Assembly: GCF_045037415.1 (NCBI RefSeq)
Contig: NZ_CP173440.1
Source: Escherichia coli
Lineage (GTDB): Bacteria; Pseudomonadota; Gammaproteobacteria; Enterobacterales; Enterobacteriaceae
Direction: 5' to 3' (one strand)
Length of the DNA stretch: 64,000 bases
Shown here: one piece after another, positions 1-15,000 of the stretch
Layout of the letters: each line of letters begins with the position of its first letter
How positions within the stretch are numbered: position 1 is the stretch's first letter
Program-made: the position numbers

Positions 1-3000
1 AACAATGCTTATTCACCAATTTACCCAGACCCCGATGAACTGACAATTTTTGGCGTGGTGACTCATTGGGTTCATCGTGCCCGGGGTAATCTGTAATGTA
101 TGCTCTGGCGGATGTGAACAGCTTTTATTGCAGTGTTGAGAAATGCTTCAGACCCGATTTACGCGATAAACCAGTGGTCGTCCTTTCTAACAACGACGGC
201 TGCGTTATAGCTCGTTGTAAACTGGCCAAAAAATTCGGCATTCCTATGGGTTTACCCTGGTTTAAGTTGCGTGAGCAGCGCTTCCCGGAGCCCGTGATTG
301 CCTTCTCCAGTAACTACGAGCTGTATGCCAGCATGAGCGCCAGAGTACATTTCTGCCTGGAGGAATTATCATCCCGTGTCGAAGAGTATTCCATCGATGA
401 GTCTTTTATTTGGGCTGGTGGGATTGATAACTGCATGACGTTTGAGGAATACGGACATCAGCTAAGGGATCATGTTTTCCGCTGCACTGGACTGACGATA
501 GGGGTAGGCCTGGCCCCTACAAAAACCCTTGCGAAAGCCTGCCAGTATTCCAGTAAGACCTGGCCCCAGTTCGGAGGGGTACTCGCACTGACTGCAGGCC
601 AGCGTAATCGGATAGATAAGATGCTTTCTCTGATGCCGGTAGAGGAGGTGTGGGGGGTTGGTGGACGAACCACAAGTAAGCTTCATGCAATGGGCATAAC
701 CACTGCGCTGGAGCTGGCTCGTACTAACCCTGCATTCATAAGACGAAACTTCACCGTAGTTCTTGAACGAACAGTGAGGGAACTACGGGGAGAAAGTTGT
801 ATCGACCTGGAGGATGCCCCGCCACCAAAACAACAGATCATATGCAGCAGGAGCTTTGGGCAGCGTATAACAACGTATGAATCCATGCGGCAGGCAATTT
901 GCCAGTATGCTGAACGTGCTGCGGAAAAATTGCGCCAGGAACGTCAATACTGCGGTCAGGTATCAGTTTTCATAAAAACCTCGCCTTTTTCAAAACATGA
1001 ACCCTATTACAGCAAAGTCTCCAGCGAACAGCTCTGCATTCCATCACGTGATACGCGGGACATTATCGCGGCGGCTGGCCGGGCTCTGGATAAAATCTGG
1101 AAAGAAGGACATAACTATGCAAAGGCGGGAGTCATGCTCAACGATTTCCGTCCCTGCGGAGTTACCCAGCTATCGTTATTTGATGAAGGGAGGTCGTATG
1201 CAAACAGTGACGCGCTCATGAACGTACTGGATACGATAAACAACTCAGGCAAAGGCAAAGTATGGTTTGCCGGTCGTGGCATCGCACCGGCGTGGTCAAT
1301 GAAGAGAGATATGCTCTCTCCAGCCTACACAACGAGGTGGGACTCGATACCGATCGCTACACTCTGAGTTATCGCAATCAGGAAAAATGCCTTCCGTCTG
1401 CTGGTGGTTGATATTTGCTCTGGTGTTACCATTTGGGTATAATGTAATGACCAAATGGAGGTTTGCTATGAAAACTTTTAGTTTGTCCTCAACTCCAGCC
1501 AGACCACAGCGCCTCTGGCAGGTTGCCGGGTTAAATAATGCTGATGGTGTAGCGCTCCTGGGCCAAATCAATGAAGGCCTGGACGGGAAGGTGGTGAACC
1601 GGATCACTGACTGGGCCAGAATAACCCAGAATGACCTGAGAAAAATGTCCGGTATCCCGTCAACCACATTTAGCCGCAGTGTGAAGGCACGTTTTAACCC
1701 GGAACAAAGTGAACGTCTGGTACGGATTATCCGCGTTATTGATCGGGCGGTAGATTTGTTTGAAGGCGACAGGGAAGCCGCACAGAAGTGGTTGAACGAA
1801 CCTAACCGGGCATTGAGCTGGAAAGTGCCAGCAGACCTGATGGCATCCGAAACGGGAGCCTATGAGGTCATTAAGCTGATTACGCGTCTGGAGCATGGGG
1901 TGTACTCGTGATCCTCTACAGGCTGACGAAAACAAAGTATCTTTCTACGGCCTGGACCGGATATGGTGCGAAAGAGGCTGGTGGGCGCTGGAATAGCGTG
2001 GGGGTGTCAATGGTATATGTCTCCGAAACGGCATCACTAACGATGCTGGAGACCCTGGTACACCTGCATGCGGCACAGATAATGGACTCTTTCACGCTAC
2101 TGAGTATCGATGTGCCTGATGAACTGATACAAAGCGCAAACATGGATGAATTACCGGGCAACTGGGCTGATGAGGATGCGCCTCAGGAACTGGCTGATTA
2201 CGGAGATGCCTGGTCATTTACCAGGAGCTCGGTTGCACTGCGTGTTCCCTCAGCCTTATCGCCGGTAGAGTTCAATTATCTGTTAAATCCTGAGCACCCT
2301 GAGTTTTACGGGATCGTGCAGAAGGCTCAACAGATACCGTTCCGGTTTGATAGTCGTCTTAAACCTGACAGGAAGTGAAGCAAGAGAGGATAGGGCGCTG
2401 TCATGATGCCTGGCGCTCCTGCCCGGTGTCACATAAAAAAGCCCGCCAGCGGCGGGCAAAGACTACACACAGCTATTACAGGATGATTCAGGCAGTTTCT
2501 TCGTAAACGTTGTAATCCAGTTTTGCTCCACTGTAATTCTGCAGACTACGGGCTTTATTCATCGCGCAGCTGAACGCATTCGAACGATCGCCTGCACTCC
2601 CGTTATGCCCATAGCGGGCAATTTCATACGGTTTCTCATAACTGCATTCTTCCAGCACAATAAAGGCTCCCGGTTCACTGGTCAGCAATTCGAAACCAAG
2701 ACCTGCGGCTTTTGTATTCCTTAGCTGGTAATATGCAGTGAGTGTCATAATTGATTCCTTAAATAATACCGATACAAAGATATTTCTACAGGCATTGTTG
2801 AGTCTGTGAAATTGCTGATAGTTCAGAGTGCCTGTAAGTAATAATAACTTATTCAAGTGGCGCGTCAATTGGTAAATAACCTTACCGTCATTATATTTTG
2901 AAAGAAATACAATCAGGAAAAGTGACTTTAAAAATCTCTTTCGGATATGACGCTACTGATATCTGATATTGCCTGGAGAATTTTGTCATAGGCGTAGACC

Positions 3001-12000: not shown

Positions 12001-15000
12001 TGAAGAATTCCCGAACACGCCAGGTCATCCGACGCGATTAACCGGGAGATGAGAGAAAAAGTTACTTTTCTGCGAACATCTTCATTTTTCCAGCGCACCT
12101 GTCCCGGGGTTGGCGTGTATACCATATCTTCTTCAACCGGCCGCAAGCGCGAGAACTGACTAAAGGGCTCTGCCCATGGCGTCCAGAGTGCGATAAGGGT
12201 ATCGTCGTTGAAGCGAACGGGAAGAGTCAGCACTGAGGCGGAAAATTCATCAAGGAACGACTGAATAATGCTGCTTTTACGGTACATCGCGGGCTGGTGG
12301 CGGTTACCCAGAATGGAAAGATCTATAACACGGTTGAAAAGAGACGTGTATTCATCCTGTGGATCGCTCAGGTTGCCACTCCAGAAAAGTAACTTTTCTT
12401 TCAAACCAGATATCAAAGCATCCTCTTCGAAAATCCCCAGATCGTGCTGGTGGATGTCTGGCACCTTACCGTGTCGCTTGCGCCGCATAACCTGGTATTC
12501 AACCTGTTCAGGCATCTCAAGGAAAACGGGGAGGAAGCCTGCAATATCAATAAACTCAGGCAGCAGGTACCAGCCAAGACGCTCGGCATTGAGCTGGATA
12601 AAAGCCATGCGTTCCTGATTTTTATCAATCTGCACTTCAACCGTGTGGCTCTTCGCCATGCAGTTACTCAGCTGCTCCTTGAGCCACTCGGTAAAAGGGC
12701 CCTGGGATACAGACCAGTTGCAGGTGACCTCTGTATCATCGTGCGTAACGATAGTCACCGCATAACGGATAATAAAAAACTCCGCCAGCGTGCGGGCCAG
12801 CACGTCGAGACTATCAACCGTGTATTGGGCGTAGACCTTACAAATGTCACCAGTAAGCTTCTTCGCATAACGTGACAGTAGTTCCGGCAGGCCTTCGTCA
12901 TCAACATCTATGCCATACAGTTTCAGTGTCTTGGTTGCACGTGAAATGTATTTGGGCTGGGAGGAATTCATACCGAATAACGATTCCCTTGATACCTGTT
13001 TGCATTCCATAGTTAGCCCACCTTCTGTGATTTGCTAAGTATTTCTTCTACATTGAGATTACGTCTCATTTTTAGTTTGTAGGGCGAAGTCGTTACCATA
13101 TCAAAGACGGTTGTTGACCTACGCATTGATTTGCCCGGCACGGTTATAGGCATCTGGCCCACAATTTTACGCCCGTCCTGTAAGCAGGCGATGAAGTGAA
13201 GGGTTGGGATCATCGACAGTAATTCCTGTGGTATAGCATTTACCATCGTTGTCGACTTTCGCTCGGAAATGGAACCATTGAAATCTGTATGTGACTGTTT
13301 TGTACCAGCACTGGTGGTGTAAGTGACCTGGTTCATTGAGACATTAGTCTGGCCGACTTTGGTCAGAACAAGCTCCTGAGTCTTCGCGTCAGTAACACGT
13401 GTGGAAATGTAGTTGTTGCAAAGGCCCGTTAAACGGTCAGCAGTATCGGCGCTGGTGGCCGATACAAAATCAGAAATGGTCTGCGTAGAGATGAACAATG
13501 CGATCTTGGCCGCGCGTCCCTGGGCGAGAAGGTTAATCAGTTGCATATTAACTGCCTGATGAGCCTCATCAATGAATATGGAAATCCTGGGCACAGTGGA
13601 CAAATCAGATGCTGTGTTATAGCGACTACCCGCCTCAGCGGCAATATCCGAAGTAATCAGCTGGGAGAGGTCCCGTGCTGTTGCCGGATCAGACAGGCCG
13701 TCCAGCGAAATGTAAAGCACGCCACCGCTGTTAAAGAGTCCATGGCTGTTAACGATGTTACGGTCAGGGTTCTCGACATCGTTCGCCGAAAGCAATATAT
13801 CCATAGGGGTCTGGGACAATCGCTTGAGCATAGGCATCAGGCTGGCAGTGATTTTGTAATAGTGCGACTCATCGCCGGAGATGTATTTAAAACATTCCAG
13901 AACCGTATCCATGCCATGCATGTTTTTGGGAGAATTGTCTTCAAAGTAGTTGCAGTGGAAATATTCTTTCAGCTTTTCGATTTCGTCTGCAAAAGTAAGA
14001 TTTGGAGATACCTGAACAGTTAAATGCCAGTCAGCCCCGAGATGGTAAGTATAAAAACCCCTGAGAGCGTTACGAGTGGTAACAATGAGATCCTGTTTAG
14101 AGCGTATGGCGTAGTAAATATTCTGGATAGTCGGTTTTGTACCACCCAGTTTCAGGGCACCTATCGCCGTTGTGACAAGCCCCTCTGCAATACGCACGAA
14201 CGGATCTTCACCTCCTTCAGTACCTGAAATAATGCTCATAATACGGGCGGAAAGGTCTGTATCCTTAACATAGTTAGCGCTGACATCATAAGATACAGAC
14301 GTTGAAGGATTGCCTGCGTGAAAATGCATAAAAGGCTTACCAAGACTTTCACATTCTTCCTTTAACCCTTCCTGCCACTGATAGTCGTTTTTAGGGTCAA
14401 CAACGAGAACGATGTGTCCAAGGTGTAGCATTGAACTGGAAAGAAGGCGCTGGAGAACCGTTTTCCCGGTACCTACGTTTCCTGTAATAAGAGTATGTCC
14501 AAAGAAATTTTCTTCATTGACGAATATCGGGATTTTTTTATCAACGCCGAAAATCGCATAATTCCCGCCCAGGTCGAAGGCAAGTTTTCGATAGTGACGG
14601 GTAACGGGATTCAATATAAACGGTAACTGCACCTCATGCATATCACTGGAAAGGTTGTGCACCTGGTAGGTACGTTCAGAGTGCTCCGGTCCCCATTTGA
14701 AACCATTGCACAGAAACGTTGTACGCTGGGGGATCACAATCTTTTCTTTCTTACGAAGGAGCTGGTAAAAACTTTTCTTCGATGGTGCTCCACCAGACTC
14801 CTGCAAACTGACCAGTTTCTGATATTTACGGTCATCAGCAAAAAAATGTGCATTATTAATCATTCGAAAATCTTCGAGTGATAAAAAATCCATCGTGCGA
14901 TGAAATAATCTCCAGTGAGCTATGAAGACCGGTACCCCGTGCCATACCCTCCATCCTGCCATCGCTATTAACCCCAGAGAGCAATAGAAGGGTATTTCAC

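Follow-up and report, generated by a model that had tools for sequence, protein, structure and literature searches.

Genomic context of the array

The 64,000-nucleotide stretch of Escherichia coli contig NZ_CP173440.1 (assembly GCF_045037415.1) described here, which we refer to in its full length as the window, carries near its left-hand end a dense, one-sided array of Chi octamers (GCTGGTGG) that overlaps the 3′ half of a plasmid relaxase operon. The first 14 kb of the window are 100% identical to many Klebsiella pneumoniae IncHI1B/IncFIB plasmids (pNDM-MAR-like hybrids), and 272 database records match this segment at 99% identity or more. Gene annotation was taken from one such plasmid, NZ_CP072809.1 (388 kb), of which 160 contiguous kb around the window were scanned for Chi; we refer to this plasmid type as Kp. 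The genes at the left comprise umuC, an Xre/RES toxin-antitoxin pair, hok, and several small plus-strand open reading frames (ORFs), followed by the leftward-transcribed relaxase operon; traF, traH and traG lie on the plus strand to the right of the intergenic region at 19329–19922, and an IncHI1B RepB-type initiator is encoded 39 kb to the left of the window. The two features to which the array is most closely related in position are as follows.

9305–19328, minus strand: relaxase (Dtr) operon, mobI–hypothetical–mobH–traD–hypothetical–DUF4400–S49–NERD, from annotation; transcribed leftward, away from the origin of transfer (oriT).
19329–19922, no strand assigned: probable oriT, an AT-rich intergenic stretch of 594 bp upstream of mobI that contains 34-nt inverted repeats and three to four copies of AAAAGTACTAATGA at 19582–19723.

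The oriT of plasmid R27 reportedly lies immediately upstream of mobI, and that of IncA/C plasmids occupies the same position; it is by this analogy that we take 19.33–19.92 kb to be the probable oriT of this plasmid group. The array faces the probable oriT from the relaxase side, at a distance of 6–19 kb from it and from mobI. A first-pass annotation of the window had placed the transfer origin somewhere to the right of the array as one possible source of double-strand ends; the probable oriT at about 19.4–19.9 kb is indeed to the right, although the array stops some 6 kb short of it.

A one-sided array of Chi sites

An exact search finds 27 copies of GCTGGTGG in the window, 22 on the plus strand and five on the minus strand. 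Of the plus-strand copies, 17 fall within 414–13458, where the minus strand has just one, at 6681; this gives 1.26 plus-strand copies per kb within positions 1–13,500. One more plus-strand Chi is situated about 118 bp beyond the left end of the window, in umuD, so that the array contains 18 plus-strand sites and one minus-strand site over 13.6 kb; its right edge, at about 13.46 kb, is sharp. The sites, and a lone Chi facing oriT from its other side, are listed here.

414–13458, plus strand: Chi array, 17 copies, with one opposite copy.
414–421, plus strand: Chi 1, within umuC (plus), frame 0, codons Ala-Gly-Gly.
1400–1407, plus strand: Chi 2, intergenic, between umuC and the Xre-type antitoxin gene.
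1977–1984, plus strand: Chi 3, within the RES toxin gene (plus), frame 0.
4293–4300, plus strand: Chi 4, in hypothetical gene 4231–5205 (plus), Leu-Val frame; kept in pC5889_NDM, where the surroundings are 53% identical.
5212–5219, plus strand: Chi 5, intergenic; kept in pC5889_NDM, local identity 64%.
6517–6524, plus strand: Chi 6, in hypothetical gene 6470–7537 (plus).
6898–6905, plus strand: Chi 7, in the same gene, 6470–7537 (plus).
7558–7565, plus strand: Chi 8, intergenic.
7926–7933, plus strand: Chi 9, in hypothetical gene 7633–8040 (plus); its pC5889_NDM counterpart is GTTGGTGG.
8880–8887, plus strand: Chi 10, intergenic, 8 nt 5′ of the ATG of ORF 8895–9251; paralogous copy at 29516.
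9261–9268, plus strand: Chi 11, in an intergenic hairpin between the convergent ORF 8895–9251 (plus) and NERD gene (minus); kept in pC5889_NDM.
10093–10100, plus strand: Chi 12, in the S49 peptidase gene (minus), Thr-Ser; the sole site common to Kp, pC5889_NDM, IncHI2 and IncHI1.
10243–10250, plus strand: Chi 13, in the S49 peptidase gene (minus).
10745–10752, plus strand: Chi 14, in the S49 peptidase gene (minus), Pro-Pro-Ala.
12293–12300, plus strand: Chi 15, in hypothetical gene 11913–12971 (minus), His-Gln.
12446–12453, plus strand: Chi 16, in hypothetical gene 11913–12971 (minus).
13451–13458, plus strand: Chi 17, in the 3′ part of traD (minus); the right-hand edge of the array.
6681–6688, minus strand: the sole reversed copy inside the array.
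26184–26191, minus strand: a lone oriT-facing Chi beyond oriT, in traG; at an identical offset in pC5889_NDM.

The first-pass annotation had given 14 plus-strand coordinates in the first 13.5 kb, from 1400 to 13451, all of which are exact, having overlooked those at 414, 4293 and 6517; the five plus-strand copies that it placed outside the array (29516, 29725, 32290, 34431 and 40441) are likewise correct. Its count of only three reverse-complement copies has to be raised to five (6681, 26184, 32753, 33649 and 51023), because those at 33649 and 51023 had been missed, and its statement that the metal/zinc island at 49–64 kb is free of Chi in either orientation is wrong by one site, the minus-strand copy at 51023–51030.

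The array does not respect gene boundaries or gene direction. Five sites are intergenic (29%, in a region that is 25% intergenic), six are in plus-strand genes, where they occupy two frames, and six are in minus-strand genes, in which they encode Thr-Ser, Pro-Pro-Ala or His-Gln; the latter six (10093, 10243, 10745, 12293, 12446 and 13451) are the same ones that the first-pass annotation had assigned to minus-strand genes. The sequences flanking the array copies are unrelated to each other, so that nothing beyond the octamer itself is repeated, which rules out a longer repeat or iteron that happens to carry Chi. The one exception is the pair at 8880 and 29516, whose flanks are alike because both lie in a 528-bp duplication (8726–9252 and 29361–29888, 92% identity), each Chi being 8 nt 5′ of the ATG of one of two paralogous 118-aa ORFs (8895–9251 and 29531–29887). 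We also note that the hairpin containing Chi 11 (9252–9285, −19 kcal/mol) occupies the 53-bp gap between convergent genes and resembles a bidirectional terminator.

The array is not a product of chance, composition or coding

Several comparisons show that the abundance of Chi departs strongly from expectation. In dinucleotide-preserving shuffles of the window 1.8 copies are expected and never more than six are seen, compared with the 27 present. We also performed 2000 codon-preserving shuffles of the array region, in which all proteins were kept, codon usage was kept either regionally or for each gene, and intergenic bases were shuffled; these give 1.0–1.4 plus-strand copies with a maximum of six, against 17 observed, and 0.1–0.2 minus-strand copies against one observed, so that the first-pass proposal of a frequency and strand bias beyond codon-preserving expectation is borne out. 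Among all 8-mers of the window Chi ranks first, with 22 plus-strand occurrences and 12 for the runner-up, and within 1–14 kb there are 17 copies as compared to five for the next independent 8-mer. The same-strand clustering in the Kp-type plasmid is highly significant by a scan statistic (P<5e-5).

The selectivity for the exact octamer is particularly clear. The 24 one-mismatch variants of Chi occur on the plus strand of the array at a mean of only 0.58 each, compared with 17 for the exact sequence, and 17 of the 19 plus-strand GCTGGTG heptamers are completed to Chi; a general bias towards G/T-rich words is ruled out by the background level of the variants. Synonymous change would permit a plus-strand Chi at 16 positions between umuC and the 3′ part of traD, and 12 of these are used (75% saturation); to the right of the array, in the remainder of traD, in mobH, mobI and the gene between them, and in the plus-strand genes as far as traG, there are 14 such positions and none is used. 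A codon or amino-acid artefact is ruled out by the codon-preserving shuffles, the varied contexts of the sites and this use of permitted positions, and a compositional by-product is essentially excluded.

Conservation of the array in other plasmid lineages

We compared the region with three relatives, each lineage being represented by one plasmid, although the within-lineage database matches are near-identical: pC5889_NDM from Enterobacter, which is 84–86% identical, the IncHI2 plasmid pSH111_227, and the IncHI1 plasmid of E. coli KV7. All three keep the order of small ORFs with hok, then NERD through mobI, oriT and traFHG, and in all three the segment 4–19 kb from mobI on the relaxase side contains Chi exclusively in the orientation seen in the window (18:0 in pC5889_NDM, 11:0 in IncHI2, and 10:0 in IncHI1), with Chi as the top 8-mer of the array segment in each. 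The IncHI1 and IncHI2 plasmids are complete (223 kb with 39 Chi, and 228 kb with 35 Chi, respectively), and in both the array is the only same-strand cluster, at 0.67–0.78 per kb compared with 0.11–0.14 per kb elsewhere (scan statistic, P=6e-4 for IncHI1 and P<5e-5 for IncHI2). The Kp-type background is about one Chi per 5–10 kb in mixed orientation, and the 13.6-kb array stands alone in the 160 of 388 kb that were scanned. The density of the arrays is 5–9 times that of the plasmid background. The lone Chi beyond oriT in the window also has a parallel, as IncHI1 and IncHI2 carry one or two oriT-facing Chi across oriT, 4.5–6.6 kb from mobI.

The individual sites have a more complex history. The NERD-to-mobI operons of the Kp-type and HI1/HI2-type plasmids align at about 51% nucleotide identity, and within this alignment one Chi (that at 10093) is present in all four plasmids, eight are shared by Kp and pC5889_NDM, HI1 and HI2 have three in common, and another three are singletons, with ACTGGTGG standing in the window at the place of one of them. 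All eight operon Chi sites are conserved between Kp and pC5889_NDM, where identity is 84%, and array-wide 10 of 14 window sites match perfectly in pC5889_NDM, compared with 19% of all aligned 8-mers; two of these conserved sites lie in stretches that are only 53–64% identical. Where a site is absent from pC5889_NDM there are other Chi nearby, at non-homologous positions. Inheritance of a single ancestral set of sites is ruled out, there being only one site common to the four lineages. These patterns bear the mark of purifying selection on existing sites together with repeated gain of new ones, density and orientation being kept and individual positions not. The first-pass expectation that orientation would be kept in homologous elements therefore holds, and extends to location, down to about 51% nucleotide identity. 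The array has been maintained independently in the IncHI1 and IncHI2 families, and it looks like a selected device, acting at the DNA level, that deals with broken or incoming DNA ends.

Chi in other plasmids and elements

The IncC plasmid pNDM10505 presents a different arrangement, with a plasmid-wide enrichment of Chi that is co-oriented with its genes (51:16, 0.4 per kb) and no significant local same-strand cluster by the scan statistic. However, 10 of its 16 minus-strand, oriT-facing Chi fall in the first 27 kb after mobI/repA (binomial P ~4e-5, a post hoc test), and these 10 run against the orientation of nearly all of the genes and against the GC skew. As a test for separating oriT from the relaxase operon as the relevant landmark IncC is suggestive but not decisive. 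The Pseudomonas plasmid pCAR1 has an IncC-like layout, and the host-type Chi GCTGGCGC is not enriched in the 50 kb around traI/traD (100–150 kb, a quarter of the plasmid). An SXT/R391-like integrative and conjugative element in an unannotated Proteus record has five Chi in 41 kb; no mobI was found in it and it is uninformative.

There is a further difference in gene content. Both pCAR1 and IncC carry ssb, recT/bet and exonuclease modules and have no local Chi array (for pCAR1, in the quarter examined), whereas annotation shows neither bet, recT, exo nor gam in the 160 kb taken from the Kp plasmid or anywhere in the IncHI1 and IncHI2 plasmids, although many of their ORFs are hypothetical. Arrays without a Rec module on the one hand, and Rec modules without an array on the other, echo the rule seen in phages, in very few cases. 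A Tus-like replication-terminus-binding protein is encoded by each of IncHI1, IncHI2 and IncC, which implies a defined polarity of replication. When nine ORFs within and beside the array were scanned against PHROGs, the matches were to just two families, both of unknown function, and no anti-defence-like genes appeared. Further to the left, outside the window, a Cas6/CasE-like gene adjoins a DinG-like helicase gene (29.6–32.1 kb of NZ_CP072809.1), a pair that resembles the effector module of plasmid type IV-A3 CRISPR-Cas; a group II intron (ltrA) and ISCfr12 lie between this pair and umuD.

Relationship to known Chi clusters

The closest described phenomenon is the clustering of Chi in phage genomes reported in 2025. 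In phage LLS 20 of the 23 Chi are in one orientation, at about one per kb at the end and one per 1.9 kb overall (Zheng, Casjens, Davidson, Amundsen & Smith, Genome Res 2025). The plasmid array resembles those of LLS-type Rec-less lambdoid phages and P1 in using the same octamer, in this being the commonest 8-mer, and in its bias to one orientation (17 of 18 in the array); if ends do form at the probable oriT, the cluster would also, as in LLS and P1, lie within about 10–20 kb of a defined end site and be active for RecBCD entering there. No recombinase or RecBCD inhibitor is annotated in the 160 kb of the plasmid examined, which may be a further likeness to LLS. The differences are that this is a conjugative plasmid in which the presumed source of ends is oriT or the relaxase operon rather than cos or pac, and that the array is denser than that of LLS (1.26 per kb) and local within a 200–390 kb replicon that is otherwise chromosome-like or lower in Chi.

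Enterobacterial chromosomes also have a Chi skew, favoring the leading strand at about one per 4.6 kb, and the orientation of the array agrees with it given the likely fork direction, such that an enzyme heading back from a broken fork would encounter active sites. Unlike the chromosomal skew, the array is local and has sharp edges, about 75% saturation, and roughly 12 times the one-strand chromosomal density; rather than a uniform chromosome-like density of about 0.2 per kb, we find 1.26 per kb in the array and about 0.11–0.15 per kb elsewhere in the plasmids. Chi-rich plasmids have previously been noted as totals, for example 81 Chi in the 186 kb of IncA/C plasmid pMG252 (Subramaniam & Smith), and a possible benefit of Chi to plasmids has been raised in passing. 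The plasmids described here are, like pMG252, MOBH-family enterobacterial conjugative plasmids with Chi above chromosomal density, and unlike IncC they have a low overall density with one tight array by the relaxase operon.

A more distant parallel is with the leading-region anti-defence islands of MOBF and MOBP plasmids (Samuel et al., Nature 2024), since the array may also be an oriT-proximal counter to a host nuclease, although it is a cis-acting array of DNA motifs and those islands consist of protein-coding genes with single-stranded DNA promoters. MOBH plasmids are not resolved in studies of leading-region anti-defence islands, and we found no mention of Chi or RecBCD in the papers examined on leading-region anti-defence and CRISPR targeting of leading regions. 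A full-text literature search likewise found no description of an oriT-proximal Chi array. The array extends selected, oriented Chi clusters from phages to conjugative plasmids, at the oriT/relaxase region.

A proposed one-way gate for RecBCD

The polarity of Chi and the behavior of RecBCD are well established, and Chi stimulates crossing-over to its 5′ side. The RecBCD enzymes of enteric bacteria reportedly recognize the E. coli Chi. Those of K. pneumoniae have been treated as equivalent to the E. coli enzyme in this respect (PMC10147710). A top-strand copy of GCTGGTGG is recognized as active by RecBCD that has entered from the right (Zheng et al. 2025); it follows from this polarity that every site in the array would be readable by an enzyme coming leftward from the oriT side. 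The right-to-left recognition proposed in the first-pass annotation was correct, and the protection or recombinational activation that it went on to suggest is a possible consequence. All of the functional readings that we consider have in common that the array would act as a one-way gate, at which RecBCD coming from ends located to the right of the array would cease to be a nuclease and begin to load RecA. They differ in where those ends come from and what is gained.

The reading that we prefer, tentatively and with doubt slightly outweighing confidence, is that the array is a one-way RecBCD gate for double-strand ends that arise at the oriT/relaxase-operon side, with breakage of replication forks as the likeliest trigger. 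A vegetative fork from the RepHI-type origin would break or reverse after crossing the array, the obstacles being the mobI-to-NERD operon, which would be the only head-on operon of that replichore, and then the relaxase-nicked oriT; either breakage at the relaxase nick or reversal at the head-on operon would give an end that the array faces. RecBCD would load on this end near oriT, travel leftward in window coordinates, and meet up to 17–18 correctly oriented Chi within 6–19 kb, such that with recognition of about 30–40% per site fewer than 1% of enzymes would escape. Recognition would switch RecBCD from degradation to loading of RecA on the 3′ tail, limiting the loss to a few kb by oriT and routing the end to recombinational repair or restart with a sister copy. 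The array would be one-sided because forks always arrive from the same side.

Several observations are consistent with this. The array sites are on the leading strand relative to the fork direction inferred from GC skew and from the position of the Rep genes on the array side of oriT. In IncHI1 the strand that carries Chi switches along the plasmid in step with the sign of the GC skew, which fits with forks that set out from the RepHI1 origins and pass through the array, the relaxase operon and oriT in that order. On a plasmid in another system oriT is a hotspot of naive CRISPR adaptation, which its authors credit to AT-richness and strand melting; this is compatible with the formation of ends at oriT. 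That ends do form at oriT or the operon in these plasmids, and that the array confers a fitness benefit, are inferences.

A number of points weigh against breakage of forks as the trigger. The chromosome repairs collapsed forks with about one correctly oriented Chi per 5–10 kb, by which standard 1.3 per kb would seem overkill, and the transfer genes of IncHI plasmids are repressed at 37 C, so that both nicking and transcription of the operon may be rare. Plasmid F manages without any Chi although its oriT is often nicked. In the Kp lineage the roughly 6 kb nearest oriT (mobI, mobH and most of traD) are free of Chi despite 10 permitted positions. The GC skew across the array is weak in IncHI2. 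Lastly, since the order of Rep, array, relaxase operon and oriT is identical in the IncHI1, IncHI2 and Kp plasmids, comparison of lineages cannot separate the arrival of forks from conjugative entry as the source of ends.

Alternative explanations

It is this second source of ends that gives the strongest competing explanation, although we consider it distinctly less probable: that the array acts on the recipient side, lying in the plasmid segment that would stand exposed as a linear duplex end at oriT while the plasmid enters. Entry of a 250–390 kb plasmid takes 5–9 minutes, during which the tandem Chi would one after another convert and disable the roughly 10 RecBCD enzymes of the recipient, and/or promote RecA-dependent circularization, as a DNA-level form of anti-defence replacing proteins absent from MOBH plasmids. 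The density and one-sidedness of the array are those of the terminal Chi clusters of Rec-less phage LLS and P1, which face the end where RecBCD enters; its region resembles a leading region in that hok, umuDC and numerous small ORFs are transcribed toward oriT; and a regime in which more sites are better would suit the 75% saturation of permitted positions. The 10 of 16 oriT-facing Chi of IncC, within 27 kb on the mobI side and against gene orientation and GC skew, would also fit, as would the finding that MOB-H plasmids show no leading-region peak of anti-defence genes, for which its authors invoke unknown alternative mechanisms. However, the array side may not be the one to enter first; the relaxase bound covalently to the 5′ end caps it and should keep RecBCD out; and a naive recipient offers no homologue, while Smith's group argues that Chi without recombination does not save DNA. 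Moreover, the 6 kb that carry mobI, mobH and traD would already be gone when RecBCD reached the first Chi, and the PHROGs scan of the array revealed no anti-defence-like genes. The stronger proposal, that in IncHI-type (MOBH) plasmids a cis-acting ‘Chi shield’ replaces protein anti-defence genes by neutralizing recipient RecBCD and the CRISPR adaptation that it feeds, is similarly doubtful.

Limitation of CRISPR adaptation and plasmid–plasmid recombination are smaller possibilities, or may be secondary benefits. By bounding the tract degraded from the oriT end, in whichever cell that end arises, the array could limit the acquisition of spacers, or other sensing of RecBCD products, and it is true that type I-E adaptation relies on RecBCD and is delimited by Chi, that oriT and oriV are naive acquisition hotspots on a plasmid, and that Klebsiella lineages hosting these plasmids have type I-E systems, whose adaptation modules are the kind borrowed by the type IV-A3 systems of rival plasmids; we nonetheless regard this as improbable, as Chi would then be expected right up to oriT, where 10 permitted positions in the nearest 6 kb go unused. 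A shade less probable again is that the array is a recombination hotspot, stimulating RecBCD-RecA crossovers between plasmid backbones that yield cointegrates, hybrids, or repair from relatives. IncHI1B/FIB backbones do form hybrids with virulence plasmids, the window itself comes from such a hybrid, and recombination during transfer is reported, but the strict orientation and the fixed position relative to oriT in three families call for a fixed source of ends rather than general recombinogenicity, and a benefit in evolvability is a weak selective force for the upkeep of 17 sites. Least probable, and very unlikely in our view, is that the array has no dedicated function and is a by-product of replication-oriented skew, composition or codon usage, or that GCTGGTGG is bound by some other factor. 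Its orientation agrees with the GC skew and Chi contains the common CTG codon, yet codon-preserving shuffles yield about one copy, one-mismatch variants are at background, the density is 5–9 times that of the rest of the plasmid, 29% of sites fall between genes, and half of those in coding sequence belong to antisense genes; the sites are also conserved far above their neighboring sequence and have been gained independently in diverged lineages.

Implications for IncHI plasmids

The plasmids that carry the array include the IncHI1B/FIB hybrids that combine NDM and hypervirulence in K. pneumoniae, the IncHI2 plasmids associated with mcr-1 and extended-spectrum beta-lactamases, and the IncHI1 plasmids of multidrug-resistant typhoid, all of which are major large resistance plasmids. 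The polarity of the array provides an indirect handle on the polarity of both transfer and replication of IncHI plasmids. If the array does act on RecBCD, then plasmid stability or establishment would have a new determinant, in the form of a conserved and cheaply mutable DNA feature that steers the principal double-strand-break nuclease of the host, and the phage rule that genomes with no Rec module accumulate Chi would extend to plasmids. If it acts in the recipient, it would explain how the leading regions of MOBH plasmids manage without an anti-defence island and how R27-like plasmids establish themselves efficiently, and it would offer a testable answer to the question raised in 2026 of what MOB-H plasmids use instead of leading-region anti-defence genes.

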